A DNA stretch of 50,902 nt from a bacterium. Lineage in GTDB: Bacteria; CG03. The stretch lies in the NCBI GenBank assembly GCA_013791675.1, contig VMTI01000239.1, positions 1 through 50,902 of the forward strand, given 5' to 3'. The notes beneath the pieces are model-generated. The model had not been told where the DNA came from, did no database searches, and saw only the letters and a program-made list of their open reading frames with translations. The position numbers and the translations under genes are program-made. Shown in pieces: positions 3,449 through 37,648 of this stretch (position 1 is its first letter; each line of letters begins with the position of its first letter).

Positions 3449-5854
3449 ATGAAAATAAAATATCGACACAAAAGCATGGAAGTAGAGGGAAATAGCGTTT
3501 CTGTGCTGTTCTCTTATTCCGCCAGAGTATTTTTTTTCGGCGCATGTTTTATTATTTCCCTCGGAAGCTTGTCCGCTTCAACTTTTGTTCTCACTTTTGA
3601 TCAGGGAGATAAAGAGTCATATTATGACGCGGGCTGTTCATCTTTGACATGGAATCATGATGAGGGCTATTTGTGCCTTAGCGGCGGCGTTGAGCAAACA
3701 ATACTTATGAGCTCTTATCCGACCATGCCTGTGGTTAGTCCCCCGCAACCTACGGCGCAGTTGGGTTATGAATTTACAGTTCTTGAAAACTGTTATATCA
3801 GCGGATTTGCGCGTTTTGCCGGGGCTGAAGGCGGAAATCCGATTGTAAGGTTATGGACGGATGACACCGGAGAATTTTTGGGCGGCATACAATACCCCTG
3901 GATTGATATTGCCGTAGGCAATAACGCCGGCTGGTCTGAGAGGTCTATAGATTTCTATTCCCTCCTTTACCCTTTGACCAAGGGCAACATCTATTGGATC
4001 GCCAATGTCGCCGATGGTCAGGTTGGTCATCTTGTCGGAAATCTGGGCGCGTCCGCCGTTTCAGGCAGCGATTATTTGAATATAACAACGCCGTGGGGGT
4101 TCTGGTATCTTGACAACGACGAGCGCTCGCCGGGTAATGTCACCGATCCCACTGCCAACCTCATGTATATACCTTTCCTAGAGGGAGTGGCCGATTTGAA
4201 ATTGAACCGGTTTAACGCCGCGGGCTCAATTGTTACAAAAGCCATAGACCTTGGCGCAACAAAAATTGATATAAGCGCCTTTCAGGTAATATTTCAAACA
4301 GCAAATGCAGGAACCGGTTTTGATGAAATCCAGCAGACAGGTTTTCTCTCCTACGACATAATTTACGACGCTATCGCTTCCGTGGGATTAACGCCCCAAT
4401 GTTCGTCGGCTTTCGGTTTAGCGGAATCTGATGATAATATCGCTTATAGCGAATATTCGACATCAACGTTTTCTAATATCAGCAAGCGGTATATAAAATT
4501 GTCTTGCGAAATGAATACTCAGCACAGGGGAATAACGCCCATCTTAGATCAGGTCGTTATTGATTATAACGCTTATCCGGAAGCAATCGATTCATCAAGC
4601 GTATTACCATCCGATGGCAGTAGTATCAGCGCAGAAAATCCATGCTTCAGTTGGAATCCGGCCTTTGATTATGACGGAGATGCTGTCACATATACATTGT
4701 CGTTATCTGCCTCTCAGGAATTCGGGGATTTAGTCTTTTCAACCACAGTTGTCTCTATACCGTCATCAGCCGAGGTGGTAGTAAACTATATAGACCGCCT
4801 GAACCCCGTTACAAGTTATTACTTTAAGATAGACATGCAGGATGCTAATTCCGCAGTTGTGGCTGCTGATAGGGTTTATTCTTTCAGGACGCCGGATGTG
4901 ACTCCTAATTCTCCGGCGACTCCTGTTATTTTCTCGCCAAAGGATGAATTTGTCGCTGATCCCAATCCGCTGTTTTCATGGTCTGATTTTTATGACGCGG
5001 ATGGCGATTTCCAGTCATCCTTCTGGCTGCGAGTAAGATCCGCGACAGGGACATATTCTTCAGGGAATTCCATGGATAGCGGAGAGGTTTTGAGTTCGGA
5101 GAATGAATGGACGCCGACGGGCTGGGATCTGCCTTTCGGGAATACGTATTACTGGAGAGTCAGAGTGAGGGACGACACCGGATTTGATGATTCATGGTCT
5201 GAATGGAGCGCGGAACAATTGTTTATCCGGATACCGCAAGCTCCGTCGGGAGTGAGTATTAATTTACCGCAGGGTGAAACCCAGATAAAAAATAACGATA
5301 CAATCAGCATTACGGGCACGGCCGAAGAGGGAACATTTTGTGTAATCCTCATACGGGATCAAAACGGCAGGGCGCTGTATGACGGTATTACTTTTTCAGG
5401 CCTCAGCGTCGGGGCGGACGGCCTGATCGATGCGCAGGTTTCGTTAGGAAATATCGCGGTGAATTACCGCCTGGCGAGTCAAATTCGGGTTGAGGTTGTT
5501 CTAATCGATCCCGCCGGACACAGATCAGCCGCCGCAAGTTCAGCCTTTGTTGTTTTTAAAGCCGGGAAGGAACAGGCGACGATCTACGATAATTTAATGA
5601 CTCCTCCCGGAGTAAAACCGGTGACGATACGATACGAATTGCCCGCCGCGTCTAATGTGACGATAACGGTTTATGCCGGGAACGGGACATTGGTTAAAAA
5701 AATAACAGATAATCAATTCATGCCGTCGGGAGTTCATACAGCGGAGTGGTTTGGTAAAAATGCTTCAGGAAATCCTGTGGCAAGCGGTGTATATAGCATC
5801 CATATCAAAACGGATTCTTATAGCAAGCTGTTAAAGGCTATTGTGGTGAAATGA
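3449..5854 (+). CDS. large secreted protein with FN3/Ig-like repeats and a C-terminal FlgD-Ig / T9SS-CTD-like domain
   Basis: Hydrophobic signal-like N-terminus. Repeated F/W-S-W-x-x-x-x-D-x-DGD segments. C-terminal NVTITVYAGNGTLVKK...WFGKNASGNPVASGVYSIHIK. ATGA overlap with the next gene. Confidence 0.65.
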   Translation: MKIKYRHKSMEVEGNSVSVLFSYSARVFFFGACFIISLGSLSASTFVLTFDQGDKESYYDAGCSSLTWNHDEGYLCLSGGVEQTILMSSYPTMPVVSPPQPTAQLGYEFTVLENCYISGFARFAGAEGGNPIVRLWTDDTGEFLGGIQYPWIDIAVGNNAGWSERSIDFYSLLYPLTKGNIYWIANVADGQVGHLVGNLGASAVSGSDYLNITTPWGFWYLDNDERSPGNVTDPTANLMYIPFLEGVADLKLNRFNAAGSIVTKAIDLGATKIDISAFQVIFQTANAGTGFDEIQQTGFLSYDIIYDAIASVGLTPQCSSAFGLAESDDNIAYSEYSTSTFSNISKRYIKLSCEMNTQHRGITPILDQVVIDYNAYPEAIDSSSVLPSDGSSISAENPCFSWNPAFDYDGDAVTYTLSLSASQEFGDLVFSTTVVSIPSSAEVVVNYIDRLNPVTSYYFKIDMQDANSAVVAADRVYSFRTPDVTPNSPATPVIFSPKDEFVADPNPLFSWSDFYDADGDFQSSFWLRVRSATGTYSSGNSMDSGEVLSSENEWTPTGWDLPFGNTYYWRVRVRDDTGFDDSWSEWSAEQLFIRIPQAPSGVSINLPQGETQIKNNDTISITGTAEEGTFCVILIRDQNGRALYDGITFSGLSVGADGLIDAQVSLGNIAVNYRLASQIRVEVVLIDPAGHRSAAASSAFVVFKAGKEQATIYDNLMTPPGVKPVTIRYELPAASNVTITVYAGNGTLVKKITDNQFMPSGVHTAEWFGKNASGNPVASGVYSIHIKTDSYSKLLKAIVVK

Positions 5855-8595
5855 ACAGGGTTTTATGTACAGTAATCGCGGCGACAGTATTAACCGTTGA
5901 TCTTGCGCTGGCCGGTACAGGGGAATGCGCGGCTAACGAAATTTTAAACTCGAATTTAGGAGCTGGCGCGATGGGCAGCGGCGGTGCCGCCTCATGCCGC
6001 GTTGATCCATTGGGAGCGATACAGACAAATCCCGCGGGGCTTTCTTTTTTAACGAATTCTGAGTTTTTTACCTCATATAACAGAAACCTTTTTGAAACCC
6101 GGCACACATTTTTAGGTTTCGCTAAATCTTTTGCCCCGCGTTCCTCTGTCTGGGCGGTGAGCGCCGCGACATTATCTGATGAAACTATTTTGCTGAATTT
6201 AACAAATCCGGACGGTTCTTTAAAGGAAACACGCTCGGTGAGATCGAGGGATGATTATTTGCTGATTTTAAGTTATTCCCAAATGTGGGGAAAAAATGTT
6301 TCCGCGGGCTTGAACGCAAAATTGCTTCAGAGCACTTTAGCCTCGCAATACAAAGCGACGGCTTACGCCGTTGATACGGGCTTCTTGTTCCGGCCAGCCG
6401 GCAAGCGTATCAGTTACGGGCTGTCCGCCCGGAATTTAGGAACAGGGCTGAAATATATTGAGGAAGAAGATGATCTCCAGAGAGAATTCACCGCAGGGCT
6501 CGCGCTTCGTCTTTTGGAATCGAAGGCGCAGACACTCGCTCTCATGGGGGATCGTGTTATAAACGAAAAGAACAGGACTCATCTGGGTGCGGAATACACT
6601 TTCCATGAAAGACTGATTTTAAGGGCCGGATATAAATTCGGTTACGACCTTGATACTTTCACGGCAGGTTTCGGTATCAATTCCCGGAACATGGGCTTTG
6701 ATTACGCCGTTGTTAATAACAGGATTTTTGATAATTCGCAAGTTGTTTCTGTGAGAATGAAATTCGGAGATGTGTCTCATTATGATGCGGGCAGGAATTA
6801 TTTTAACAGGGGAATGTTTGAAAATGCTATAAGCGAATGGCTGAAAGTGCAGAACGGTCATCCCGATTTTAAAAAAGCGGCCGAGAGCGTCGATGAGGCT
6901 AAGAAATATATGCAGGCGGATGAACTCTACAAACAGGGTGAAAACTTTTTTCAAATAGAGAAATATGAGGAAGCTCTTGTGGAATTTGAAAAACTTGAGA
7001 AGATCCTTGAGGGATATAAAGATATACGGGAGAAAATCCAATTTATCAAAAACCTGCAGCCGGCGAATTTAAAAAACGCGATATTGGAAATGGAAAAAGA
7101 ACTGATAGAAGCGAGAAACATAGGATTTGACGTCGAGGAAGAAAGAGGCATAAGCTCGCGGGCTTTTGGAGCCTTTATGTGGAATAATTATAAATTAGCG
7201 AGAGAAAAAGTGGATCTATTCTGGGAAACTCTCAACGCGGGTTATAGAAGCGGCGCTGAAAAAGCCATCGCGGATGTTAATGCGGAGCAGCACAGGGCTG
7301 ATGAACAGGATATTGAGGTTCCTGACGCTTACAGAAGGTTTGGGGAAATAAAGAAAATATTCGCTGATGGTGAGTATAAATCAGCAAAGATAAAAACTAA
7401 TCAGTTAGGGATGCTCATCGCTGAGAGGCTGCGGCTGAACCAGGAGATGGAAAGCATCGTCGGGGCGGCTGTGAAGAGGGGAATTGAAGTAGAAAAGGTG
7501 GTAATTCTCGCGAAATCCCGCCCGATGGAGGACAAAATCGCCGCCGAGAAATTTTATGAGTGGCGATCCCGTGACTATCAGCCGGTGAAATATCAACAGG
7601 ACACGAAAGCCGCCACCGCCGGCGTCGGCTCAGTAAAGGAACACAAGGATCCCCCGTGGAAAATTCTCGCGGATAAGCGAAAGGCGCCGATCCCGCAGAT
7701 GCCGACAACGGAAGGCAAGACCCTGGCTGAAATAGAAAAAGAACTGGAAACAGCGGATGGTATAAGGCAAAAGCTGGAAAACTTGGGCGGTATATTCGGC
7801 GCTACTGTGAAGAGGGGGATAGAAATAGAGAGGGTCTCGATTCTCGCTCAGGCCCGTTCTTTGGGGTTTAAGGGAAAGAGCGTGACTGTCAGCGGCGAAG
7901 GACGGGAAATACTGCATAATATAGGAAAGCTCCTGACGGAGAGCCGGCCGGAACGAATCAGAGTGATAGGGCATAGATATGATATGGGTGACGCGGAATC
8001 AAACAAAAAAATCTCATTGGAACAGGCGGAAGCCGTAAGGGAACATTACATTGAAAAAGAAAATATAAGCGGTGAGATTATAGAGGCGACGGGCATGGGT
8101 GACACGCAAATGTTGGATGATTCGGCCGGCGGCCGTTTGGATCGTGTGGATACGGTGTTTTTAGCGGCAAGTGATGATTTACAGGTTTCAAAGCAGCTCA
8201 AAAAAATAACCCGTCGTGAGGATGTGTCGGTACAAAGGGTTGTGGAATCCGTTGAAACTATAATTTTCGCTTCTGAAAAAGCCGTATATTTTGAGCCGGA
8301 GAGCCTTGAGATAAAACAAAGCAGTCTGCTTTTACTGGACAGGATATGTGATGTTCTGGAAATATTGCCCGAGTGCGAGGTGAATATAATCACCGCCGGA
8401 AGCGATACAGCTGAGGATAATGTCCATTTGTTTTTTCAAAGAGCCGAAGAAGTGGTACAATATTTTGTGGATCACCGGAAACTTTCCGCTGAAAAGATCA
8501 GGGTGCGGCCGGCGGATTTTTGGGATCAGCCCGAGCTGAAGGGCAGGTTTAAGAACGATGAGCTTATCATCACTTTAAGATGGGAGTACCAATGA
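5851..8595 (+). CDS. PorV/PorQ-like outer-membrane barrel fused to a long helical region and two OmpA-C-like domains
   Basis: Signal peptide. The N-terminal block NLGAGAMGSGGAASCRVDPLGAIQTNPAGL parallels the PorV-like ORF at 27308. Lys/Glu-rich helical middle with an internal duplication (VKRGIEVEKVVILAKSR / VKRGIEIERVSILAQAR). C-terminal OmpA-like blocks (RIRVIGHRYDMGD..., VYFEPESLEIK...). Confidence 0.6.
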   Translation: MNRVLCTVIAATVLTVDLALAGTGECAANEILNSNLGAGAMGSGGAASCRVDPLGAIQTNPAGLSFLTNSEFFTSYNRNLFETRHTFLGFAKSFAPRSSVWAVSAATLSDETILLNLTNPDGSLKETRSVRSRDDYLLILSYSQMWGKNVSAGLNAKLLQSTLASQYKATAYAVDTGFLFRPAGKRISYGLSARNLGTGLKYIEEEDDLQREFTAGLALRLLESKAQTLALMGDRVINEKNRTHLGAEYTFHERLILRAGYKFGYDLDTFTAGFGINSRNMGFDYAVVNNRIFDNSQVVSVRMKFGDVSHYDAGRNYFNRGMFENAISEWLKVQNGHPDFKKAAESVDEAKKYMQADELYKQGENFFQIEKYEEALVEFEKLEKILEGYKDIREKIQFIKNLQPANLKNAILEMEKELIEARNIGFDVEEERGISSRAFGAFMWNNYKLAREKVDLFWETLNAGYRSGAEKAIADVNAEQHRADEQDIEVPDAYRRFGEIKKIFADGEYKSAKIKTNQLGMLIAERLRLNQEMESIVGAAVKRGIEVEKVVILAKSRPMEDKIAAEKFYEWRSRDYQPVKYQQDTKAATAGVGSVKEHKDPPWKILADKRKAPIPQMPTTEGKTLAEIEKELETADGIRQKLENLGGIFGATVKRGIEIERVSILAQARSLGFKGKSVTVSGEGREILHNIGKLLTESRPERIRVIGHRYDMGDAESNKKISLEQAEAVREHYIEKENISGEIIEATGMGDTQMLDDSAGGRLDRVDTVFLAASDDLQVSKQLKKITRREDVSVQRVVESVETIIFASEKAVYFEPESLEIKQSSLLLLDRICDVLEILPECEVNIITAGSDTAEDNVHLFFQRAEEVVQYFVDHRKLSAEKIRVRPADFWDQPELKGRFKNDELIITLRWEYQ

Positions 8596-10865
8596 AAAAT
8601 AAATTGATATTTTTTTTATTTTTTCTGTTTTCATGCGCAACTTTGCGGGGCCTTCGCGCGCCGGAGGCAAAACCTGACTGGTTTGTTAAAACACCGTCTG
8701 AAAACGGTTATTTGTTCTTTACCGGCGTGAAAACAGGAGCGCTTAGCCCGGAGGCGGGGAAGAGGGAGGCTGTCAATGATGCGTTCCGGCACATAGCCGA
8801 GTATTTCAGCGTGTCTATAAAATCGGAATATACGGAGCGGAAATCAACAGCTTCCTGCGATTTTATGAGTTTGCTCAGCGCCAAATCCCGCGCTCAAATT
8901 GATAAGGCGTACGTGGACAAAACTCATATTACGGAACGCTGTGACCCGAATCTTAAGAAAAACATCTATGATACATTCGTGCTGATTAAATACCCTCTCG
9001 ATGAAATTGAGAAAGAGAGAAAGAGGATAAAGCTGGAAAATGAGGAAAACGTTAAAAGGGCAAAGTATTATTTTGAGAGGGGCAGATATCATTCCGATAG
9101 CGTGGCGCTTGTAGAGGGTTTTCAGAATTTCGCCATAGCGCTGAAAATCCTTGAGGGCACCATCGGGGAAGATGTTTTAACGAATGAGATCGCGGGTTAT
9201 GCCGTCAAATGTCTTAAAAGAATAAAGCTGAACGGCTATCCCTGCGATCCGACGGGAAGTGCCGGCACGGGTTTGCTGAATCCGCTGAAGATCAAAGTCG
9301 TATATAAGGTCGGCGATAAAGAAATTGCCATAGCGGGAATGCCTCTTAATTTCGCTTTTCTGGAAGGTGGCGGTATTCTGGAACGGCAAGGCCTCACGAA
9401 TGATTCGGGTCTTGCGGAGTGCGCTGTCGCAGGAATAAGCAACACCGGACAGGAAAATCTTGTCATCGCGGTTCTTGCGTTAAACAGGGTGTTGAATACC
9501 GCTAATGAGCTTGTGCAAACCGAAGCTCAGAAAATGCAGGGGCTCCGCCACATTTTTGCTTTTCATTCCACCGGTGAGCCGGGTGATATCAAGAAACAGC
9601 CTATGATGGTAAAGATCTCCGATTTTGCTAACCTTACGGGAGATGTTGATCTGGCCTGGCTGGAACAGGCTTTAACGGATGGGATCGTGAACAAACTCAC
9701 TCGCATATCGAACTTGCATGTTGTGGAGCGGGGCGAAGATGTGCTTTTGGAAGGCTCTTTTCAAAAAAACAGCGGGAGAGTCAAAATCAATGTCAGGGTG
9801 ATCAAATCTATAGACGGCAGTGTTGTAAGTGTCGTCGTTGAAGAAGGGGAGATGGATAAAATCTTTGAAATTGAGGAGAACGTCGCAATTCAAATTGCCC
9901 GCCTGCTGAAAATTAAAGTAGCGCCGGATGAAATGAGATCCGTGAAATCGCGCGATACGAATAATACAGAGGCCTATGAGGCATACAACAGGGCTTTACT
10001 TGAGCACAAAAAGGGCAATCACAGCCAGGCTGTTAAAATGTACAAAAAGGCGCTCGCGCGGGATAATAAATTCGCGGACGCCTATAACAATTTGGGAGTT
10101 TGCTATTACAATATCAATTTGCTGGACGATGCGATAAGCTCATATCAAAAAGCAAAAATGATAGAACCTCTTAATGATGCTGTGACGGTAAATCTCGCCA
10201 CAGCGTATTTTAAGAAAGGCGCAAGGGTAAAAGCGCTGAATCTTCTTGAAGATTATGACAGCCTGGGGTCGCCGTCCGTCCGGGTTCTGCTCATGACCGG
10301 CGTGATTTACAACCGGATTGCCGAATATCAAAAAGCGAGCGAAGCTCTTGAGAGGGCAATAGAAATACAGCCCTCTGCTCCGGCTTATAATGAGCTTGGG
10401 ATCGTCTATGATAATAGGGGGCAATATGACCGTGCGATAATCATGTACACGGGGGCTGTGAAATTGAACCCCTCGTTTTATCAGGCTTTCAATAATATGG
10501 CGATCGCCTACATGGCTAAAGGAGAATATGAGCAGGCGCTTAATCCGGTTAATAAATCTTTGGCGCTCAACTATGAGTGCGGAGATACCTTTAATCTTAT
10601 GGGTTTGATTTTTGCTAATCAGGCGTCCTATTCAAAGGCGATAGCCGCTTATAAAAGAGCAATACATCTTTCGGGGTCACCGCAAGCATATTATAATCTC
10701 TCGTGCATTTACGCGCTTCAAAATGAGACTGATTTGGCCCTGCGGTTTCTTGATCACGCGATTGATTCCGGATTTAATGACATTAATTCCGTGAGCGCGG
10801 AGCCTGCGTTTAAAAATTTAATATCAGATAAGCGTTTTTCTGAACTGATAGAAAAAATCAGGTGA
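8592..10865 (+). CDS. TPR-repeat lipoprotein
   Basis: MKNKLIFFLFFLFSC lipobox-like signal. The C-terminal half holds many TPR units (AYNNLGVCYY, AYNELGIVYD, AFNNMAIAYM, AYYNLSCIYA). Start chosen at the ATG that overlaps the upstream TGA (ATGA); the ORF track starts at 8580. Confidence 0.8.
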   Translation: MKNKLIFFLFFLFSCATLRGLRAPEAKPDWFVKTPSENGYLFFTGVKTGALSPEAGKREAVNDAFRHIAEYFSVSIKSEYTERKSTASCDFMSLLSAKSRAQIDKAYVDKTHITERCDPNLKKNIYDTFVLIKYPLDEIEKERKRIKLENEENVKRAKYYFERGRYHSDSVALVEGFQNFAIALKILEGTIGEDVLTNEIAGYAVKCLKRIKLNGYPCDPTGSAGTGLLNPLKIKVVYKVGDKEIAIAGMPLNFAFLEGGGILERQGLTNDSGLAECAVAGISNTGQENLVIAVLALNRVLNTANELVQTEAQKMQGLRHIFAFHSTGEPGDIKKQPMMVKISDFANLTGDVDLAWLEQALTDGIVNKLTRISNLHVVERGEDVLLEGSFQKNSGRVKINVRVIKSIDGSVVSVVVEEGEMDKIFEIEENVAIQIARLLKIKVAPDEMRSVKSRDTNNTEAYEAYNRALLEHKKGNHSQAVKMYKKALARDNKFADAYNNLGVCYYNINLLDDAISSYQKAKMIEPLNDAVTVNLATAYFKKGARVKALNLLEDYDSLGSPSVRVLLMTGVIYNRIAEYQKASEALERAIEIQPSAPAYNELGIVYDNRGQYDRAIIMYTGAVKLNPSFYQAFNNMAIAYMAKGEYEQALNPVNKSLALNYECGDTFNLMGLIFANQASYSKAIAAYKRAIHLSGSPQAYYNLSCIYALQNETDLALRFLDHAIDSGFNDINSVSAEPAFKNLISDKRFSELIEKIR

Positions 10866-20151: not shown

Positions 20152-20180
20152 TTGACAGTAAAGGTTTTTCGCATTATATT
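20152..20180 (+). promoter_or_regulatory. sigma70-type promoter
   Basis: TTGACA, 17-nt spacer, TATATT, placed about 25 nt upstream of the riboswitch-like aptamer. Confidence 0.6.
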
Positions 20181-20203
20181 CATACTGTAGGGTAAATTGG
20201 GTT

Positions 20204-20306
20204 TTATCCGATAAAGGCAAACCCGCTGAAAGGCGGGGACGCAAAGCCACGGGGCTACCCCCTGCAGTATATCTGCAGGGCAAGCCAGCCAGGATGCCGA
20301 AGATAA
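20204..20306 (+). promoter_or_regulatory. c-di-GMP-I (GEMM-I) riboswitch aptamer
   Basis: GGCAAACC-CGCU-GAAA-GGCG-GGGACGCAAAGCC matches the conserved GEMM-I core (compare the Vc2 aptamer GGCAAACC...GAAA...GGGACGCAAAGCC). A second hairpin is CCCUGCAG-UAUAU-CUGCAGGG. Closing helix is UUAUC / GAUAA. Confidence 0.82.
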
Positions 20307-20340
20307 ACTTACCTTAAGTCAAACCTGACTGACCCGCTAG

Positions 20341-20398
20341 CCGGGCTACCGAAGATAGTAGAATTAAATTCTATGTATTTTTGGTAGCCCGGTTTTTT
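20341..20398 (+). terminator. intrinsic terminator (riboswitch expression platform)
   Basis: ccgggctacc (20341-20350) pairs with ggtagcccgg (20383-20392), followed by TTTTTT. It lies immediately before the RBS of the 20416 ORF. Confidence 0.75.
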
Positions 20399-20415
20399 AT
20401 TTGGAGGTAAAAGTT

Positions 20416-21471
20416 ATGGAAAATAAAAACAATTCTCTTTTAACACATCCTGTGTTAAAGTTGGCAGCGTTGTGCTTTCTATTAGCAACCTTCTTTGTTC
20501 CTGAGTTTCATGCAAGAGATATAAATCTAAAAGAATATGTTCTAGTAGCTAATGATGTTATAGAAATATCAGGTGCTTCTATCATATCCGGATGTGTTCA
20601 TTCGAATAATGCTGTTAAGGTCTTAGATAACCCGGAAATTAATGAGCGGGTATCTGCAGTTGGTAACATAGATATAATAGATCCTTCAAAGATAACAGTC
20701 TCACCAGAACACACATCTCATCTAAACGTCATTCCGAAAGTCAACATTTCCAAGTACAAGCAAATTAATAAATCCCTAATCCTTGAATATACGAAATTAA
20801 ACGGATGTTTTTTTGTCAATGGCGACGTAATAATAAAAGGGAAATTTAGCGGCAAAGTAAGTATAGTAGCGACAGGTAACATTGAGATAAATGGTGATAT
20901 GGATATAGAAACAATTAGTAATAACCCTGTATTATATACAGCGAAAGGAGAAATATCTATTAGTGGTAGTGGTGAAATAACAGGATTAATATATGCTAAC
21001 AAGATTAGTGTTTCAGGTACAGTAAAGTTAATACCGGTAAAAGCTCCTAGAAATATAAAAAGGGAAATGAAAGTTTTACTTCAATATATGGGCATTGGAG
21101 TTGCGGATGAAACACAAGCAGGGTCGGAAAGTTATGATGCTGAACAATTTAGCCGTCCAATAATGGCCCGGGGCACATCGAAAAATACCCATAAACGACC
21201 GACTATAGGCACAAATGTCAAGTATCGGCGTAATAAATCAGATACTAAAACTAAAGTGACAATTCTTACACAGGAACATGTGACTATTAGGCATTATATG
21301 ATTCCTCCAAGCAAGGAAAGGTTCAAAAAATTCAATGAAGTTGAGTTATGGGATGGGAAGGATTCTTCAGGGAGAGAAGTGCCTGACGGAACGTATTATA
21401 TTCTGTTGGATATTCAGCATCCTAAGGGACGAAAGGAAACAAAGACATTTCTTATAGAGAAGGGCAAATGA
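20416..21471 (+). CDS. secreted/anchored beta-helix-like repeat protein with a C-terminal FlgD-Ig-like domain
   Basis: GGAGG RBS 8 nt upstream of ATG 20416 (the ORF track starts at TTG 20401). Signal/TM segment LKLAALCFLLATFFVPEFHA. Short repeats of the form G-x-I-x-I-x-G. C-terminus WDGKDSSGREVPDGTYYILLDI. Confidence 0.65.
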   Translation: MENKNNSLLTHPVLKLAALCFLLATFFVPEFHARDINLKEYVLVANDVIEISGASIISGCVHSNNAVKVLDNPEINERVSAVGNIDIIDPSKITVSPEHTSHLNVIPKVNISKYKQINKSLILEYTKLNGCFFVNGDVIIKGKFSGKVSIVATGNIEINGDMDIETISNNPVLYTAKGEISISGSGEITGLIYANKISVSGTVKLIPVKAPRNIKREMKVLLQYMGIGVADETQAGSESYDAEQFSRPIMARGTSKNTHKRPTIGTNVKYRRNKSDTKTKVTILTQEHVTIRHYMIPPSKERFKKFNEVELWDGKDSSGREVPDGTYYILLDIQHPKGRKETKTFLIEKGK

Positions 21472-24400
21472 AATATTTAGTTTTTATAGCTATGTTTTGT
21501 ATTGTGGGTTATGCTGATGCTGTTAGCGTTAGTCATATTCCCCTATCTAACAGTCATTCTGACAATCAAATAGTAGAAATAAGTGCTGTGGTGACCGATG
21601 ACATCGGAGTAGCATCAGTTTGGCTGTATTATCGTGAAGCGGGAAAGATAGAATATGAAGTAACTTCAATGTTGTGCATTGCAGAAGATATTTATCAGGG
21701 TTGTATACCACAATCGTTTGTGTTAAATCTGAGAACTAAAAGAGTCGAATACTACATAGATGCAATTGGTAATAGTATAGGATATATATCTATAGGTCAG
21801 CCAGGAACGAAGGATAACCCTAATATTTTTCCTGTTTCGGATGTTACACTGCCCCAACCGCCCTGTTATGCAGAGAGTGGGGGTACATTTGACGGCAAGG
21901 TACAACTAAAATGGTATCACTCAACTTCAGCTGATGTAGCAAAATATAATATATATGGTGATAATGGTTCAGGAATTATTGATTATAGCAGGTGTATAGC
22001 CACAATTTTCTATCCTGATAAAACTTGGATATGTAATATAAACACACAAAATGATATGACTTACAAGTTTGTTGTCCGAGCAGTTGATAGTGCTGGGAAT
22101 GAAGAAAGTAATAATAAAATCTTAAATACGAATCTTATAATGGAGCCGTGGGAAGATAGTACCTCATTGCCTTTTTCACGACATGGTTATTTATCAGTTA
22201 TCAAAAAAAACAGGATATTCATAATAGGTGGTGGTCATACAGAAAACGAAAACCTTCGGCCGTGCGAACCAATAAGTCCTACCGTTACTGTATACTCAGC
22301 TCAGGTAAATAACAGTGGGACAGTAGGTGAGTGGAGAGAAGAAATAAATAGTTTGCCTGAAAAACGATGTTATTATGCAGGGGTGTCTTATAAGGATTAT
22401 GTATATGTTATTGGCGGACTATCATATGGTTATACCAACTATGCACAAAGAACAGTCTTTTTTGCCAGGATAAACGATGATGGGACAATGGGTAACTGGG
22501 AAACCACGACTCCCTTACCTTTAGAACTTGGAAGTAATTCTGCAGCTATAGTAGGTGACCACATTTATGTGGTTGGGGGATATTCAAAATATAGTAAAGA
22601 GAAAGTTGTATTGTATACAAAAGTTAACGCTGACGGTACTTTAGGGAACTGGAAGAATACAACTCAATTGCCCAGCTGCAGATTTTTTCACAGTACTGTA
22701 AGCAAGGATAAAAAGATATATGTTTTAGGTGGATTTGACGCTAATAATGGTGTTTGTGATACAGTCTTAATGTCCACAGTCAATGATGATGGCACACTCA
22801 ATTCATGGGAATGTACTACACCCCTTCCAGTTCCCCGCGCATCAGGATCTGCTGCAATTGTGGGCAATAAAATATATTGGACTGGTGGGCTTAATCCATT
22901 TATTTCTTATAGTAACTATATTAATTCCGGGGAGACAAGGGATACTGTCTGGTACACTTCAGTCAATGAGAATGGTCATTTGGGTTCATGGAATGGCACT
23001 GCATGTATGCCGTCAGACCGTATGTCTATCCAAATTTCGAATTACAACAGTAATTTATATATTGTAGGTGGACAAAAACAGCATGCAGATCTGTTGGAAA
23101 CGGATCCAGACATATTATATATATCAAAACACACGAATGTGTGGCATGCTGATATTTCCCGCATGTTCTCTCCAGTATTAGATCAAGCTCCTCCTACAAT
23201 CTCAATATCAGTAACTCCGAAGGAAGTTAAAGAAGTCGGCGAAATCACAGTAACAGTGACCGGAATGGATGATAAGGACTTATCGGCAATCTGGTGGTGG
23301 GGAGTGAACGCCGGAGATACTGAACTCGATAAGGCTCACTGGTACAACTGCAGTGGAACTTCAGCAACCAATATGTGGACAATAGATACAAGTAGTCTTG
23401 CCCCGGGAACTTACAAATTAGGTGCGAATGCTAGAGATAAAGCATATCCGGTACTTGGGGAACCGCATCAGGCATCTGAGGGTGATGGGATTGCATATAC
23501 TACATTTGAAATAAAAGATACAACACCTCCGCAAGTATCAATTACTAGTCCTGAAAACGGGGCTGTTTTACAGGACAAGGTTAACATAGACTCTATTGCA
23601 ACGGATAATTGTGGAATAGAGAAAGTTGAATTATATCTTGATTCTTCAACTTCGCCGGTTAACATAAGTACAACATCGTCTTGTGAATGGGAATGGGACA
23701 CAAAGGCATCAGAGAATGGAGAATATACCATCAAAGCTGTTGCCTATGATAAAGCTGGTAGCAGTGCTGTTTGTTTTATTAAAGTTACTGTTGAAAACGA
23801 TGTAACCTGTCCTGTTATATCTGAAGTTGCTTCCAATGATGTTACGGGAACTTCATCAAAGATTATCTGGAAGACGGATGAACCAGCGACAAGTGAAGTT
23901 GAATACGGCACTAGTACATTATATGGATATACAAGTACAAAGAGTACATTCCTAGTTACCGGACATGAAGACGGTATAGATGGTCTTACTCCGGATACAA
24001 TTTACTACTTCAGGGTGAGATCAGGAGATAAATATGGTAACTCGACAATAAGCGATAGCTACAGTTTTAGAACGCTGGATACAATTGCACCGGAAGCAGT
24101 TACTTCATTAAAAGTATCAGCAACAGGAACCGGGGATTCAATCCTGCTCTTGTGGACTACTTTATCAAGTGATGATGTCGTAGGATATAATGTTTACAGA
24201 GATGAAGGCCTAATAGATTCCACAACTGCACTTAACTATATAGATAATAAGGTAAAGGAAGGAGAAAAATATACTTACAGTCTTTCATGTAATGATGAAG
24301 CAGGAAACGAATCAGAGAAGATATCAGTAGAAATAACCCCGAATATTGCTCCTGAAAAAGTCAGTGGATTAAAAGTAGAAGTATTTCTGGAAGGCAGCGA

Positions 24401-27311
24401 GCTTAATTTATCATGGACTGCAAATACAGAATCAGATTTAGCAGGATACAGAATATACCGTAAGACCGCTGGAACAGCGTATGGTTTTATAAATATATCG
24501 AGTTCAACATATTTTACAGATATGGGGTTAGTAGATGGAACTACCTGCTATTATCACGTATCAGCAATAGACAAGCTTTCTAATGAAGGAAAAATGTCGA
24601 ATATTATTTCTGGAGTGCCCTTTGACACAATTTTTCCTGAACCTGTAAGCGATTTTAAAGCGACATCGATAGCGGAAGGAAAAATAAAATTATCATGGAA
24701 GATTTCTCCTTCAAAAGATATAGGAAAATATCTTATTTTTTGTGATAACGCAACAGGTGCAATAGATTATGATAAGCCTTTTGCTACGATATGTCATTCT
24801 GAGAATACGTGGTTTTCAAAATGTTTGACCAATAATAAAACTTATAAATTTGCCTTAAGGGCACAAGATAAATCCGGCAATATTGAAAAAAACACGCATT
24901 TAATTGCAGAAGTTTTAACTGATGCAACACCACCTATTTCCGGGTTACAGATCTTTATAAAAGATACTGGATGGTCCAACTACTTTGGGTATGGTTTTGA
25001 ATCAGTGCTAGGTACAGCAAAAGATTCTATATCGAGTATAAATAAAGTTGAAATTTGTATTAAGGATACAACAAATAACACATATTCTCTTGGTTGGGGG
25101 GGGTGGAGTGGTTCAGAATTCTGGTTGACAGTTACGGGTAAAGAGAAGTGGGCATATGATGCATATGGTTTAAATTGGAAACCCGGACATACATATATGG
25201 TTCAATCAAGGGCGATTGATAATGCGGGGAATATTGAGAAACCTACATCTTTGGGCAGTAAGTTGAATTGGAAAGTCCAAGCTTCCATGCCGACATATCG
25301 TTGGGGTTTTGGAATTGGTGTTGTTGATGGAAAGATATATTCAATAGGTGGCTATGGAGGCTGGGGTGGTGAAGCTTTAAATGTAGTTGAAGAATATAAT
25401 ATTAAAACGAATACTTGGGTTAAAAAAGCTCCTATGCCGACAAAAAGAGGAGCGCTTACTGTTAGTGTAGTTAATGGTAAGATTTATGCCATAGGAGGGA
25501 AAAAAGACATCAATTATAATGTCTGTAATGTTGTAGAAGAATATGACCCCATAAAAAATAAGTGGATTACAAAAACACCGATACCTGCAATGTGCGAAAG
25601 TATGACCAGTGCGGTAGTAAATGGCAAAATATATGTAATCGGAGGTAGTCTTATAGAAGGGCATTACTATAATGATCAAACAGGAATAACTATGGTTGAG
25701 GAATATAATCCTGTGACTGACAGATGGTTGCAAAAGTCGCCTATGCCGTCTGGCAGAGAGTGGGCAGGTAGTGCTGTTGTAAATGGGAAAATATATATTA
25801 TTGGGGGTTACGATAGAGGGAAAATTCCTCCAGAACTAAATATATATGATCCAGTTTCAGATGCTTGGAGTATTGGCTCAGATATGCCAAACCCTCGGTG
25901 GGCATTGGCTTGTGTTTCAGTAAATGGGAAAATTTATGCGATTGGTGGGCGTGGACATAAAAGCCATGCACACAGTACGGTAGATGAATATGATCCAATT
26001 AAAGATATTTGGATTTCAAAAAGTACGCTTTCTAAAAGAAGAAGTTATCTATGCGCAGCAGTTGTCAACGACAAAATCTATGCTATTGGTGGAATGCTTG
26101 CAAATATTACTGAAGTGGCAGATATAGAATTAGCTCAATTAGCACATGAGGATGAAGTTGATGTTAGTGAACAATTAGACAGAGCCGGTGCGTGGATTAA
26201 AGTTCCTAAAAATAAAAAAAGAATCCGGGGAAATGCTGTGACGGTAATGGCTGAAGCAACGGAGAATACAAAGGGGGTTCTTTTTCAATATAAGGCGCCG
26301 GATAGTGATGAATGGATAAATATTACCGGCATTGATGAGAAATTTCCCTATGCTGTTTATTGGAATGTCAGCGCTATTGAAAATGGAGAGTATTTCCTTA
26401 GAGCAGTTGCCTATAATTCGGATGGTTTAGCCGATATATCGGCGGAAGCAATTACTGTTTTTATTGATGATGGTAATTCAGATATTGTGGAAGACGGGAA
26501 TCCTGATGTGGATCCCAATAATGAACATCGAAAACGTGAAAAAATAGAAACGACTCAAGATAATAATGCTGTTATAAGGGAAGTTATGGTAGCGGATGGA
26601 ACCAGCGCCGCTATTGCCAGTAATCTATTGGAAGAAACAACAATACTGGAAATCACGCTTTTAAAACAGGAAACAATAGCCAGTATCTTACCTCCGCCAA
26701 ATTCCAATTTAAAGGCGACAGGAGTTTTTCGGGAATATAAACTGGAGAATGGGCAGAGGCATTTCTCAGAGGAAATTAACCTGAATCTTCCCTATTCTGA
26801 TGAGAATGAAGATGGAATTGTAGATGGGACGGACATTCGAGCTGAGGAATTGAAGGTGTTTTATTTTAATGAAACTATTAGAAAATGGGAGGAAGTCAGG
26901 GAAACAGAAGTTATCTCTCAACGAACTCGCTTGAGAGCGATATCTCAAAATGGTTATTTATACACGGGGAACAGTGTTTCGGCACAAGTCAACCATTTTT
27001 CTATTTTTGCGCTGATGGCATATAGGCCGGCCACAACTTTATCTAACGTTGATATTTATCCGAATCCTCTTAAACCCGATAGAGGTAACGATATTACTTT
27101 CGATAATTTGCCCGACCATTCAACGATAAGAATTTATGCGATTTCAGGTCGTCTGATCAAGGAACTTAAAGTAACAGCCGCCGATGGCGGACAGAAAGTA
27201 TGGGATACTAAAAATAATTCAGGGGATAAAGTTTCTTCAGGAGTGTATATATATCTGATAACGAATGACGTCGCAGGTAAGACCAGTGGCAAACTGGCAA
27301 TTATAAGATGA
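21468..27311 (+). CDS. giant (1947 aa) surface protein: two 6-bladed Kelch propellers, FN3 and Ig-like domains, T9SS-CTD/FlgD-Ig-like C-terminus
   Basis: Two Kelch blocks (NRIFIIGG...SNLYIVGG, and GKIYSIGG, GKIYAIGG x3, GKIYVIGG, GKIYIIGG, DKIYAIGG). FN3-like units (YNVYRDEG, YRIYRKTAG). C-terminus DIYPNPLKPDRGNDITF...WDTKNNSGDKVSSGVYIYLI. ATGA overlaps at both ends. Confidence 0.8.
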   Translation: MKYLVFIAMFCIVGYADAVSVSHIPLSNSHSDNQIVEISAVVTDDIGVASVWLYYREAGKIEYEVTSMLCIAEDIYQGCIPQSFVLNLRTKRVEYYIDAIGNSIGYISIGQPGTKDNPNIFPVSDVTLPQPPCYAESGGTFDGKVQLKWYHSTSADVAKYNIYGDNGSGIIDYSRCIATIFYPDKTWICNINTQNDMTYKFVVRAVDSAGNEESNNKILNTNLIMEPWEDSTSLPFSRHGYLSVIKKNRIFIIGGGHTENENLRPCEPISPTVTVYSAQVNNSGTVGEWREEINSLPEKRCYYAGVSYKDYVYVIGGLSYGYTNYAQRTVFFARINDDGTMGNWETTTPLPLELGSNSAAIVGDHIYVVGGYSKYSKEKVVLYTKVNADGTLGNWKNTTQLPSCRFFHSTVSKDKKIYVLGGFDANNGVCDTVLMSTVNDDGTLNSWECTTPLPVPRASGSAAIVGNKIYWTGGLNPFISYSNYINSGETRDTVWYTSVNENGHLGSWNGTACMPSDRMSIQISNYNSNLYIVGGQKQHADLLETDPDILYISKHTNVWHADISRMFSPVLDQAPPTISISVTPKEVKEVGEITVTVTGMDDKDLSAIWWWGVNAGDTELDKAHWYNCSGTSATNMWTIDTSSLAPGTYKLGANARDKAYPVLGEPHQASEGDGIAYTTFEIKDTTPPQVSITSPENGAVLQDKVNIDSIATDNCGIEKVELYLDSSTSPVNISTTSSCEWEWDTKASENGEYTIKAVAYDKAGSSAVCFIKVTVENDVTCPVISEVASNDVTGTSSKIIWKTDEPATSEVEYGTSTLYGYTSTKSTFLVTGHEDGIDGLTPDTIYYFRVRSGDKYGNSTISDSYSFRTLDTIAPEAVTSLKVSATGTGDSILLLWTTLSSDDVVGYNVYRDEGLIDSTTALNYIDNKVKEGEKYTYSLSCNDEAGNESEKISVEITPNIAPEKVSGLKVEVFLEGSELNLSWTANTESDLAGYRIYRKTAGTAYGFINISSSTYFTDMGLVDGTTCYYHVSAIDKLSNEGKMSNIISGVPFDTIFPEPVSDFKATSIAEGKIKLSWKISPSKDIGKYLIFCDNATGAIDYDKPFATICHSENTWFSKCLTNNKTYKFALRAQDKSGNIEKNTHLIAEVLTDATPPISGLQIFIKDTGWSNYFGYGFESVLGTAKDSISSINKVEICIKDTTNNTYSLGWGGWSGSEFWLTVTGKEKWAYDAYGLNWKPGHTYMVQSRAIDNAGNIEKPTSLGSKLNWKVQASMPTYRWGFGIGVVDGKIYSIGGYGGWGGEALNVVEEYNIKTNTWVKKAPMPTKRGALTVSVVNGKIYAIGGKKDINYNVCNVVEEYDPIKNKWITKTPIPAMCESMTSAVVNGKIYVIGGSLIEGHYYNDQTGITMVEEYNPVTDRWLQKSPMPSGREWAGSAVVNGKIYIIGGYDRGKIPPELNIYDPVSDAWSIGSDMPNPRWALACVSVNGKIYAIGGRGHKSHAHSTVDEYDPIKDIWISKSTLSKRRSYLCAAVVNDKIYAIGGMLANITEVADIELAQLAHEDEVDVSEQLDRAGAWIKVPKNKKRIRGNAVTVMAEATENTKGVLFQYKAPDSDEWINITGIDEKFPYAVYWNVSAIENGEYFLRAVAYNSDGLADISAEAITVFIDDGNSDIVEDGNPDVDPNNEHRKREKIETTQDNNAVIREVMVADGTSAAIASNLLEETTILEITLLKQETIASILPPPNSNLKATGVFREYKLENGQRHFSEEINLNLPYSDENEDGIVDGTDIRAEELKVFYFNETIRKWEEVRETEVISQRTRLRAISQNGYLYTGNSVSAQVNHFSIFALMAYRPATTLSNVDIYPNPLKPDRGNDITFDNLPDHSTIRIYAISGRLIKELKVTAADGGQKVWDTKNNSGDKVSSGVYIYLITNDVAGKTSGKLAIIR

Positions 27312-28306
27312 TGAGTAAAAGTAAACATATTGCATCTGAGAATCTAAGGCAGATTCTGTTGAAAATTTCACTTGTGCTGATTCTATTTTCATATTCATAT
27401 GTATTTGCAGCCGGCAGGACACGGGCAGAATTTCTACGCATTGATACCGGAGGGAGGCCGGCGGGGATGGGCGGAGCATTTTCTGCAGTGAGCGACGATA
27501 TTAACAGTATTTTTTATAACCCGGCTGGCTTGGGCTGGATAGAAGGAACAGAAGTAACATTTTTACATAATGCCTGGCTTGAAGGTATTTCTCAGGACTA
27601 TTTAGCCGGAACGCATAATTTGGGCTGGGGGAGTATAGGAGTCAGTATTAATTATTTTGATCTGGGTGAAATAACGGGTAAAGCATCTCAGATTGATAAG
27701 CCGTATAGTTTCACAGCCCGCCAAACGGCAGCAACTTTGTCTTTGGGTGGACGGATAAAGACAAATATGGCGGTGGGAACAAGTCTGAAGCTAATTCAGG
27801 AAAAGATAGAGAATGAAAATTCTTCCGGCTGGGCGGTAGATTTCGGAATTATAAATCAAATTGATGAATACCGTTTTGCTGTTAGCGCGCAGAATTTAGG
27901 CCCCAAAATAAAATTCATAGATGAAAAAGAGGAAATTCCCACTTTATTTAAATTCGGTATTGCCCGCCAATTAGAAAATTTAACTATAGCTTTTGATGTC
28001 AATGTTTTATTGAACAGTTCTCTGTATAATTGTTTCGGGGTTGAATACAAACTGAATAATATGTTGTCATTAAGGGCTGGTTATCAGATGGATGAAGATT
28101 ATGATTCAAACATTGGTCTCACCGCCGGCCTCGGTGTATTATTAGGTGATTATAGGCTGGACTATGCGTATATGCCTTTTGGGGAGATTGGAATTACCCA
28201 CCGTATTTCTATCATTTACTCATTTGGGAATTATCCCGTACTTAATGATTTTAAATCTTACTCAATGAATTATGACGATTGGTATAGTAAGTATGGAACC
28301 AACTGA
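27308..28306 (+). CDS. PorV/PorQ-family-like outer-membrane beta-barrel
   Basis: Signal peptide. RAEFLRIDTGGRPAGMGGAFSAVSDDINSIFYNPAGLG matches the family N-terminal signature from memory. Alternating beta-strand pattern with an aromatic C-terminal region. Confidence 0.65.
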   Translation: MMSKSKHIASENLRQILLKISLVLILFSYSYVFAAGRTRAEFLRIDTGGRPAGMGGAFSAVSDDINSIFYNPAGLGWIEGTEVTFLHNAWLEGISQDYLAGTHNLGWGSIGVSINYFDLGEITGKASQIDKPYSFTARQTAATLSLGGRIKTNMAVGTSLKLIQEKIENENSSGWAVDFGIINQIDEYRFAVSAQNLGPKIKFIDEKEEIPTLFKFGIARQLENLTIAFDVNVLLNSSLYNCFGVEYKLNNMLSLRAGYQMDEDYDSNIGLTAGLGVLLGDYRLDYAYMPFGEIGITHRISIIYSFGNYPVLNDFKSYSMNYDDWYSKYGTN

Positions 28307-34542: not shown

Positions 34543-35055
34543 ATGCAAGATAACCATGAAAAGCAGATACGTGTAACTCATTACGTTCTCTGGTTTTTAC
34601 TTAATATATTTCTTGGGATTATACCATTTGTAACACCTTTTTTTTCTCCATTAAGAGATGTGAACCAATTGTTTTCAAGTTTTATAGCTTATGCATTTAC
34701 TCTAATTATTATTAACGCTTATCTCTTCGATACATTCGTCAGAACATCCAACGAAATTGTTAAATTTGAAAGAATATGGTTTTGGTTTGCTGTTATCATT
34801 TCATTTATTCTGATTATTTTTTTTGTGTTGTTTAACGTTCTTATGCTTGTATGGAATTTCCCGCAGGCACTGGTGTTATGGGCGTCTTTCTTTCTATTTG
34901 TGTTTACGATTGGATATACATTTCTTTTAAATAAGCCATTGATTCAAAGGGATATAAAAAATGAAATTAATAAATCCATAATAAAGGAAGTTGAAGATAT
35001 AAACAATAACATGTCTGCAATGAAGAAAAAAATAATGGAAAAAGGAACTTGGTAA
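34543..35055 (+). CDS. hypothetical 4-TM membrane protein with a charged C-terminal tail
   Basis: 170 aa with four hydrophobic segments and a Lys/Glu/Asn-rich C-terminus. Lies 14 nt upstream of the DGQHR gene. Confidence 0.6.
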   Translation: MQDNHEKQIRVTHYVLWFLLNIFLGIIPFVTPFFSPLRDVNQLFSSFIAYAFTLIIINAYLFDTFVRTSNEIVKFERIWFWFAVIISFILIIFFVLFNVLMLVWNFPQALVLWASFFLFVFTIGYTFLLNKPLIQRDIKNEINKSIIKEVEDINNNMSAMKKKIMEKGTW

Positions 35056-35069
35056 ATATAGGTGATACA

Positions 35070-36425
35070 ATGATTGAAGAAATAATTAATAAAAATGGCA
35101 AAGAATATTTAAAAGTTGAATTAATACAAATAACTCAAAAAAATAAAAAATTTTATATATCAAAAATATCAGCAAAAAGATTTCTAAAGATATATACTGT
35201 CGAACCAGCCGAGTATGATATTGAAAGACAAGCAAATTTTGCATCTAGTTTTGAAGATGATAGAGAATATTATGAGCATTTAATGAATAATGACAAAGAA
35301 AGAATTAATAAAAAATCATTCCAAAGACCTTCAAATGATACAAGAGTTTCAGAAATCAAAAATTTTTTAAATACTAATGAAATAGGACTTTTTCCTAATT
35401 CAATAATAGTAACTTGTGATTTACTCAACGATAAAATAGGTGAATGTAATATTGCATTTAATGAAGTAGATTCTTTTGAAAACAGGCCAAAATCCGCATA
35501 CCTTGAGGAAATTGATAATAATATATTTTTATATATTCCATATCAAAAAGACTCGGTGCTAGTTATAGACGGGCAACATAGATTGTTAGGTCTAAAAGCT
35601 GCAAGCAAAGAGGTAACAGAAGATTATGAGCTGATTATTACTTTTATTATCGGTTTCGATAGATCAATAGTAGCGAATTTATTTTATACAATAAACTACA
35701 CACAAAAAAGTGTCAATAAATCAGTTTTATATCATCTAATGGGTGAGTTTTCAAGAGAAATAGACAAAATGGCATTTATGCACGGCACAATAAAAATATT
35801 GAACGAAATAGAAGAATCGGCCTTATACAAAAGAATAAAAATGTTAGGTAATGTGCCAAAATCTTTATCCAACGAAGTGCGAAAACAAATGACAATTTCG
35901 CAAGCATTTTTAATAGATTATTTAATTGGATACATATCAAAAGAAGCTAAAAACAGTATTCATCAACCTATTTTCTATTACTATTATAAAAGTGAGAATA
36001 TGAGAATAGAAATTATACAATTTTTATTGAAATATTTTGATAGCATAAGAGAGGCATTACCAGAACAATGGGATAATGTGGATGAATATATTTTAACAAA
36101 AACCGTAGGCCTTGGCGCATGTATAAAATTACTTCCGTTTTTGTATGTAAAAATGTTTATTGACGAATATCAGATGGATCCAAAAAAAATAGTACAAATC
36201 AATGTAAATACACTGAAGAATCATTTAAAAGGAATTGAAACTATCAATTTTTCAAAATCAGGCGAATATGGAAGTGTGGGAAGTGCCGGGAGTTTAAACA
36301 AGTTAAAAAAGCAACTTATTGAAAATATAGATTTCTTTCAGGCGGATAATTATGAGGATTTTTTGAGAGTATTTAAAGAGAACTATCTTAGTAAATACAA
36401 AAAGTGGCTAACTAAATATCTATAG
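35070..36425 (+). CDS. DGQHR-domain protein (DndB/DpdB-type ParB/Srx-fold)
   Basis: Literal VLVIDGQHRLLGLKAA motif plus the downstream FYTINYTQKSVNKS block. ATG 35070 preferred over TTG 35049. Confidence 0.8.
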   Translation: MIEEIINKNGKEYLKVELIQITQKNKKFYISKISAKRFLKIYTVEPAEYDIERQANFASSFEDDREYYEHLMNNDKERINKKSFQRPSNDTRVSEIKNFLNTNEIGLFPNSIIVTCDLLNDKIGECNIAFNEVDSFENRPKSAYLEEIDNNIFLYIPYQKDSVLVIDGQHRLLGLKAASKEVTEDYELIITFIIGFDRSIVANLFYTINYTQKSVNKSVLYHLMGEFSREIDKMAFMHGTIKILNEIEESALYKRIKMLGNVPKSLSNEVRKQMTISQAFLIDYLIGYISKEAKNSIHQPIFYYYYKSENMRIEIIQFLLKYFDSIREALPEQWDNVDEYILTKTVGLGACIKLLPFLYVKMFIDEYQMDPKKIVQINVNTLKNHLKGIETINFSKSGEYGSVGSAGSLNKLKKQLIENIDFFQADNYEDFLRVFKENYLSKYKKWLTKYL

Positions 36426-37014: not shown

Positions 37015-37039
37015 AAATTGATAACTTATAGGAGGGGAT

Positions 37040-37585: not shown

Positions 37586-37648
37586 TCGCACTATCGGCCT
37601 CAATTATCAAGTGATGATGAATTTGATACAACAAGGTTTTCTGCTTTC

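Follow-up and report, generated by a model that had tools for sequence, protein, structure and literature searches.

Riboswitches of the cyclic di-GMP-I class (c-di-GMP-I, or GEMM-I; Rfam RF01051), of which Vc2 of Vibrio cholerae is an example, have an aptamer of three helices (P1, P2, and P3) with a GAAA tetraloop on P2 and lie in the 5' leaders of cell-surface genes. In the pilM ON riboswitch of Geobacter, which senses cyclic GMP-AMP (c-GAMP), the single 3' strand of the aptamer lies in the terminator, so that the two structures are mutually exclusive and ligand prevents termination (PMC9262584). The OFF c-di-GMP-I riboswitch Cd1 of Clostridioides difficile combines a complete aptamer with a separate, compatible terminator; its switching strand pairs with the aptamer 3' strand, and alternative pairing decides the outcome (PMC9262584). 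Bc1, a c-di-GMP-I riboswitch with two terminators, is reported to show no response to c-di-GMP in vitro because its downstream terminator stayed folded (PMC11218506). Here, we analyze the leader (20152–20415) of an operon of giant surface proteins on a bacterial contig of 50,902 nucleotides (nt) (VMTI01000239.1, assembly GCA_013791675.1; hereafter, the window is this whole stretch). The leader contains a c-di-GMP-I aptamer whose 3' closing half is present twice, the second copy lying within the 5' arm of an intrinsic terminator.

The whole-window Rfam scan gives a single match above cut-off, to the c-di-GMP clan at 20207–20354 (RF03167, 66.9 bits, E = 9.6e-14; model cut-off 59 bits), in an alignment that carries an insertion of about 80 nt in P3. 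When the scan is limited to 20195–20310, the canonical model RF01051 matches at 20206–20301 with 75.7 bits against a cut-off of 35. The two matches have a common 5' half and differing 3' ends, and competition between related models masked the RF01051 match in the whole-window scan. The homologous leader L006 scores 75.6 bits with RF01051. The first-pass annotation of this DNA had proposed a GEMM-I riboswitch from its core string and had named a covariance-model scan as a check; the string is present in the sequence, and the scan returns the c-di-GMP-I match given above. In the model alignment, the pocket nucleotides are canonical: G20216 (G20 in Vc2 numbering), A20243 (A47), and either C20297 of the proximal or C20349 of the distal 3' copy (C92). 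In the published crystal structures, these positions are the ligand contacts.

The label that comes with RF03167, c-di-GMP-I-GGC, is an artefact of the clan competition. The GGC variant is presumably defined by a G that replaces the intercalating A47, in agreement with the G at this position of the RF03167 consensus. The window has A20243 there, and the RF01051 consensus also has A. In addition, the canonical model scores more bits, and clearly canonical relatives are labeled GGC too. Rfam assigns RF03167 to the aptamers of the loci L016, L021, L011, L014, and L010 despite their canonical GACGCAAAGCC core; in practice, the RF03167 model is non-discriminating when E-values choose between related models. 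Because RF01051 scores above its cut-off, the pocket nucleotides are canonical, and the GGC label is unreliable, we file the element, as judged from its sequence, as a canonical c-di-GMP-I (GEMM-I, RF01051) aptamer. The cyclic AMP-GMP type (c-AMP-GMP, GEMM-Ib) is rejected, as it needs an A at position 20, the role of which is described in PMC9481103, and in the window G20216 directly precedes the P2 G-C pair. The GAAA tetraloop on P2 is at 20228–20231. The position of the tetraloop receptor reads UACC/CAA, compared with a consensus of CUAAG/UAUG and with the near-consensus CUAAA/CAUG of Elusimicrobia relatives.

A direct repeat of 22 nt (20284–20305 and 20336–20357, 82% identity), which the first-pass annotation lacks, is a duplication of the aptamer 3' half. 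Both copies contain the P3 3' strand, a two-base bulge ending in G, the position of the ligand-pairing C, and the P1 3' strand. On sequence grounds, one aptamer 5' half, made of the P1 strand a, the P2 hairpin, and the P3 strand b, can be closed by either of the near-identical 3' halves, the proximal copy c or the distal copy d. With d, every pair to a and b is standard, and d overlaps the terminator 5' arm. With c, two non-standard pairs are left in lower P3, C20250.A20291 and G20246.A20294. A tandem riboswitch of two whole aptamers is rejected, as the leader has a single GGCAAACC...GACGCAAAGCC 5' half and the duplication is limited to the 3' half. Two further strands are predicted to pair with parts of this aptamer. 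The strand a', just upstream, would form a hairpin with a that sequesters the P1 5' strand and thereby acts as an anti-P1 element. The spacer strand c', between the two copies, would form a hairpin with c that has an energy of −8.4 kcal/mol when folded in isolation. The apical P3 hairpin folds at −15.0 kcal/mol.

The duplicated design is found in further leaders, which we divide into group A (the window, L006, L016, L021a, and L021b; five leaders, about three lineages) and group B (L009, L011, and L013). The five public copies of the window contig allow no covariation analysis, their leaders being 100% identical. L006 was found through protein homology of the third open reading frame (ORF3) of the operon (62% identity), independently of any DNA pattern. 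Its leader is about 90% identical to that of the window, contains the duplication, has a shorter terminator with different inner pairs, and lies directly 5' of a gene for a 2643-amino-acid (aa) FG-GAP/Big_7/fn3 protein and a PorV-like gene. A DNA pattern search that demanded two TRCCGAA motifs after the core found three further group-A copies in one metagenome-assembled genome (MAG) of Elusimicrobia (L016, L021a, and L021b). The Elusimicrobia copies precede genes for a 1294-aa lectin-like/Big_7/CARDB protein, with a PorV-like gene, and for a CsgG-like protein. Two of these duplicated-strand riboswitches are 5.7 kb apart on one contig (L021, 684–792 and 6387–6498), one of them 5' of the lectin-like giant protein and the PorV-like gene and the other 5' of the CsgG-like (curli secretion) protein. 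In group B, a GC-rich lineage, the duplicated 3' half is upstream of a prepilin-type (N_methyl) gene, and the spacer forms an additional 8-bp helix with the apical P3 loop, in which one change is compensatory (A-U to C-G). L009 and L013 have a C.A mismatch at the identical P3 position in both closures, as in the proximal copy of the window. The complementarity of the distal copy to P3, the conserved bulge G, and the terminator overlap all recur, although the pattern did not force them.

The remaining pattern matches are rejected: L007, L008, L012, and L015 match by chance within coding sequence; the architecture of L017, L018, L010, and L014 differs or is ambiguous; L019 and L020 are of the classical design, with the copy in the terminator 3' arm. 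L020 (152–267 and downstream) carries tandem GEMM-I-like aptamers with classical terminators and with A, not G, before the P2 G-C pair (AAUAGCAAAC), presumably the signature associated with c-AMP-GMP sensing. No riboswitch was found at the more distant PorV-like/giant-protein loci L022–L036, and scans of viral contigs turned up nothing beyond chance matches to coding regions.

Across the five group-A leaders, the distal closure has standard pairs in 100% of cells in P3 and in 95% in P1, where three pairs are changed on both sides (A-U to U-A, U-A to C-G). The corresponding values for the proximal closure are 92% in P3 and 84% in P1, which is nearly lost in L021b. P2 is 100% paired and the terminator helix has 95% standard pairs; controls with one strand slid out of register are at most 51% paired. 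The AG bulge of the distal copy is invariant in all five leaders, and TAGCCGGGCTACCGAAGA in d and GTAGCCCGGTTTTTTAT (e with its T-run) are essentially invariant. The bulged G expected to form a P2–P3 tertiary pair is present in both copies of all eight leaders of the two groups, and the adjacent bulge base is variable. The distal closure is the better preserved of the two, and the compensatory changes back it, as support rather than proof. The apparent compensation of a G-to-A change at 20254 in both copies counts for less, since the partner U pairs with G and A alike. A hairpin equivalent to a':a, with covarying sequence, is predicted in all five leaders (e.g., UGGAAGA:UCUUCCG in L016). Its upstream arm a' covaries with P1 at variable distance, the loops ranging from 3 to about 16 nt. 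The Elusimicrobia leaders have an analogous conserved strand, UUCGACAGCC, which is predicted to form a hairpin of about 12 bp with c.

The terminator hairpin has an energy of −35.7 kcal/mol (z = −8.55 versus shuffles) and contains a perfect 10-bp G+C core (CCGGGCUACC/GGUAGCCCGG). As a stable, G+C-rich hairpin directly followed by a U-run, it qualifies as a Rho-independent terminator. Owing to its long, interrupted stem, it escaped a simple terminator scan. The first-pass annotation was right about a stem-loop with a T6 run before the ribosome-binding site (RBS) and wrong about its size, 10–13 bp, the real stem being 26 bp. It had also reported two occurrences of an octamer and suggested that they could compete for a common 3' partner, as expected of an expression platform. 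The occurrences are confirmed: the octamer GGGCTACC at 20252–20259 and 20343–20350 and its complement at 20383–20390 are the sole three matches in 50.9 kb (0.77 expected), and the octamer extends to an 11-nt match with 91% complementarity (20249–20259 versus 20383–20393). The competition is rejected as the switching mechanism, as a helix of 8–11 bp across 123 nt would be set against a local 26-bp hairpin and L016 has GGGACUAA instead. The P3 5' strand resembles its own 3' partner because lower P3 is nearly palindromic, AGCC(A)CGGGGCU, and the octamer is a by-product of this. The conserved competing elements are the two full copies of the 3' half, the anti-P1 hairpin, and the strand against the proximal copy. 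A candidate pseudoknot of CCCGCU (20333–20338) with the P2 3' strand is rejected, as it is unconserved in the relatives.

We compared the alternative folds with a secondary-structure energy model, in which the direct-path barriers are upper bounds. The full-length minimum-free-energy (MFE) structure of the window leader is a chain of local hairpins, namely a':a, P2, a short self-hairpin of b, apical P3, c:c', and the terminator d:e, at −89.3 kcal/mol, compared with −59.7 kcal/mol for the distal-closed form. The first-pass annotation had pointed to a comparison of ligand-bound and ligand-free folds; for the latter, the prediction is this set of local hairpins, the terminator included. The terminator state is always the ground state, 18–30 kcal/mol more stable, and the unliganded distal closure is separated from it by a barrier of 0–3.9 kcal/mol in group A and 4.6–6.7 kcal/mol in group B. 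With the terminator as the ground state and a low barrier from distal closure, the secondary-structure model predicts no ligand-free antiterminator. In the Elusimicrobia and group-B leaders, the distal closure is the dominant form of the predicted ensemble just ahead of the emergence of the terminator 3' arm (probability 0.26–0.94).

Regulation requires that ligand take d from the terminator, for which a lock on a and b is the simplest route, and the ligand-free predicted folding is the terminator state. For these reasons, we lean, with some reserve, toward a c-di-GMP-I riboswitch that controls the intrinsic terminator as an ON switch via the distal closure; both the sign of regulation and the closure that binds ligand are what we infer from the strand arrangement and the predicted folds. 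Without ligand, a would pair with a', c with c', and d with e in local hairpins, the terminator would form, and transcription would stop before the operon. The a':a hairpin would further weaken the ligand-free distal closure by withholding P1. With c-di-GMP, the ligand would lock a and b onto d and cover A20348 and C20349. Only at these two unpaired nucleotides could the terminator 3' arm start invading. The terminator would be blocked, and RNA polymerase would read into ORF1–3. The terminator has a long, weak middle, in which G.U pairs replace the G-C pairs of distal P1; this middle would delay the decision and locally favor distal P1. More speculatively, the proximal copy may be a transient placeholder or competitor that forms first, is stripped by c', and passes the 5' half on to d. 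Generally, c-di-GMP turns on adhesin, curli-type, and pilus genes, in agreement with an ON switch; the genes regulated across the leaders encode giant adhesin-like surface proteins, a CsgG-like protein, and a prepilin-type protein.

Several points weigh against an ON switch via the distal closure. In the window, the energies do not favor distal closure before the terminator 3' arm emerges (−55.7 versus −55.1 kcal/mol), and its pairing probability at the decision point is 0.03–0.04, with neither closure favored. The covariation comes from only five group-A sequences of about three lineages, and TRCCGAA was a requirement of the search pattern for both copies, so that its conservation is not independent evidence. 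The proximal closure, which is uninterrupted in geometry and scores higher in Rfam, forms first and has more time to bind ligand; if it captures c-di-GMP, d is free, the terminator forms, and the sign is the opposite. Tertiary structure, which is outside the energy model, could make the unliganded distal closure an effective antiterminator. Finally, the ON model has no compelling reason to keep a proximal copy.

An alternative, which we consider unlikely, is an OFF switch in which the proximal closure senses the ligand. Without ligand, c' would strip c, and d would pair with a and b in an aptamer-shaped antiterminator; with ligand, d would be free and transcription would terminate. The OFF switch has a role for every strand, and it accounts for the resemblance of d to c and for the better pairing of d, which forms G-C at positions where c forms G.U or G.A. 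The RF01051 score of the window comes from the proximal closure, which is canonical and uninterrupted, and Rfam picks this closure in L016 and L021 too. In accordance with such a relay, the predicted equilibrium succession in L021a runs from proximal closure (probability 0.77) through the c:c' hairpin to distal closure (0.91), with the same order in L013. The strand scheme also parallels that of Cd1 (PMC9262584), except that the switching strand pairs with the aptamer 5' rather than 3' strand. However, the low barriers and the large stability gap given above leave the unliganded distal closure nearly barrierless to the terminator, and holding off the terminator could come only from tertiary structure. 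The conserved a':a hairpin would take P1 from the unliganded distal closure and expose the 3' part of d to invasion. In L021a and L021b, c' follows c by about 6 nt and proximal P1 is nearly lost, which leaves a very short sensing window. In addition, long and very stable terminators with a weak middle suit an ON design, and it would be atypical for c-di-GMP to repress adhesins and pilins.

Conservation of the bulged G in both copies raises a further alternative, which we regard as quite improbable, that both closures bind ligand and matter. The device could give two ON chances: a ligand-locked proximal aptamer would free c' to form an antiterminator with d, and transcripts missed there would be sensed again via the distal closure. 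Or the response could be non-monotonic, if early proximal capture leads to termination. A c':d hairpin is indeed predicted whenever the aptamer holds c, and in L021a and L016 it raises the barrier to the terminator to 8.8–11 kcal/mol; in these two leaders, both closures could lead to read-through. However, c':d is weak in the window and L006 (−5.6 kcal/mol; barriers 0 and 3.9 kcal/mol) and in L021b (3.1 kcal/mol). It is also the most complicated reading, and ligand binding by either closure is a prediction.

As the terminator is always the thermodynamic ground state, the duplication could also be an unregulated remnant of a tandem 3' half with a terminator that is constitutive or responds to something else. 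The second terminator of Bc1, as reported (PMC11218506), would be a precedent. We hold this to be very improbable: three lineages retain the arrangement, distal P1 shows compensatory changes, and a constitutive terminator of this stability between a near-consensus promoter and an 8-kb operon makes little sense.

Returning to the ON switch via the distal closure, a broader proposal, which we offer tentatively and with more doubt than confidence, is that these leaders form a c-di-GMP-I sub-family in which one 5' half is closed in turn by two 3' halves during transcription, with c' removing the proximal strand and the distal strand serving as terminator arm. If this is true, the strand-exchange relay separates early pre-folding or ligand capture from the later regulatory decision, and it could give two sensing windows.

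Table 1 Positions of the leader elements and operon genes in the window
Feature	Coordinates	Strand	Basis or description
Sigma-70-type promoter, TTGACA-17 nt-TATATT	20152–20180	+	11/12 consensus positions matched
5' hairpin a':a (AUUGGGU-UUU-AUCCGAU); a' 20196–20202 pairs with 20206–20212	20196–20212	+	Predicted MFE structures
P1 5' strand (a, 20203–20210) and junction AUAAAG, including G20216	20203–20216	+	Covariance-model alignments, pair tables
P2 hairpin with GAAA tetraloop and GAC bulge, then A20243 and A20244	20217–20244	+	Covariance-model alignment
P3 5' strand (b, 20245–20255), UACC/CAA internal loop, apical hairpin 20260–20280	20245–20283	+	Covariance-model alignment
Proximal copy c of the 3' half: P3 3' strand, AG bulge, G20296, C20297, P1 3' strand	20284–20307	+	RF01051, direct repeat, pair table
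Spacer strand c' (core CCUGACUG, 20324–20331)	20313–20331	+	Predicted c:c' hairpin
Distal copy d of the 3' half: GCU, AG bulge, CCGGGCU, A20348, C20349, CGAAGAUAG	20336–20358	+	RF03167 alignment across the insertion
Intrinsic terminator: 26-bp hairpin 20339–20394, T6 20393–20398, then ATTT	20339–20402	+	Folding, inverted repeat
Terminator 3' arm e	20376–20394	+	Partner of d
RBS GGAGG (20403–20407) and start codon ATG (20416)	20403–20418	+	Read from sequence
ORF1	20416–21471	+	351-aa secreted protein, bactofilin-like beta-helix, weak match to a type IX secretion system (T9SS) C-terminal domain
ORF2	21468–27311	+	1947 aa; Kelch, Big_7, and fn3 domains, T9SS type A sorting domain
ORF3	27308–28306	+	PorV/PorQ-like barrel

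The flanking signals and the operon are as the first-pass annotation had described them (Table 1). The promoter that it reported is near-consensus, and the transcript probably starts near 20187; the homologous leader of L006 retains TTGACA-17-TATACT, as read by eye. Gene calls of public assemblies also place the gene start at ATG 20416. The operon (20416–28306, forward strand) consists of three ORFs whose adjacent ends overlap by 4 nt each, and from this arrangement the three genes appear to be translationally coupled. Since the ORFs overlap in this way, control of the operon by read-through, as proposed earlier, is the natural reading, and it is further supported by the riboswitch, promoter, and terminator. 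The gene content proposed earlier, a beta-helix protein, a 1947-aa Kelch/fn3 protein, and a PorV-like barrel, also holds. NCBI names ORF2 a T9SS type A sorting domain protein and ORF3 a PorV/PorQ family protein, and several NCBI records place the operon proteins in Candidatus Omnitrophota MAGs. ORF1 has no homologue besides itself among 5.8 billion proteins and is missing from the otherwise homologous operons of L006 and L021. The C-terminal ~400 aa of ORF2 (residues 1552–1947; 26121–27308) are common to the giant proteins of L006 (67% identity) and L021 (41%). This part has only six database relatives; it may be specific to the lineage and serve for anchoring in concert with the PorV-like barrel. 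In L034, a gene for a GAF-GGDEF diguanylate cyclase (1839–2846) is directly 3' of that for a protein sharing the conserved C-terminal 400 aa of ORF2.

The window contains a second surface-protein cluster at 3449–10865, which encodes an 801-aa Ig-like protein with a FlgD_ig (T9SS-type) C-terminus, a 914-aa OmpA-domain protein, and a 761-aa TPR protein; its upstream region gave no riboswitch match. A run of defense-like genes at 35049–48717 includes DndB-like, SNF2-family helicase, radical SAM, double zinc ribbon + JAB domain, and YhcG PDDEXK nuclease genes, as well as several ORFs without a family match.

The arrangement places second-messenger control directly 5' of giant T9SS-type surface proteins in Omnitrophota and Elusimicrobia, both uncultured groups. 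The large surface proteins of these groups are thought to mediate attachment, and the riboswitch offers a testable handle on when they are made. The duplicated closing strand provides natural competing, nearly isoenergetic aptamer closures and thereby a compact system for the study of co-transcriptional strand exchange. It also carries a warning for annotation, as covariance-model matches can shift from one closure to the other and from the canonical to the "GGC" model or back.

Compared with RF01051 and Vc2, the window element is alike in the three-helix aptamer, the P2 tetraloop, the position in a leader of cell-surface genes, the conserved core GGCAAACC...GGGACGCAAAGCC...GCCGAA, and the pocket of G20, A47, and C92. 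It differs in having the 3' closing half twice, in the receptor region, and in its host, a Candidatus Omnitrophota MAG. The RF03167 model gives the best E-value in the whole-window scan, with a score above its cut-off, and differs from the window at A20243. The predicted logic is that of pilM (PMC9262584); the window adds a proximal copy and a partner strand before the functional 3' strand. Cd1 (PMC9262584) likewise pairs a complete aptamer with a separate terminator, the difference being that the window terminator 5' arm is a copy of the aptamer 3' strand and pairs with the 5' half. Bc1 (PMC11218506) is alike in a long platform with two successive hairpins after one aptamer. There, the first hairpin is reported as ligand-responsive and the second terminator as ligand-insensitive; in the window, the first hairpin, c:c', is without a U-tract, and the 5' arm of the second can close the aptamer. 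The tandem and dual architectures reviewed in PMC9481103 do not include a 5' half common to two alternative 3' halves, and we found no description of the design in the searchable literature. The riboswitch class is well known; the new part is the duplicated closing strand that doubles as a terminator arm.

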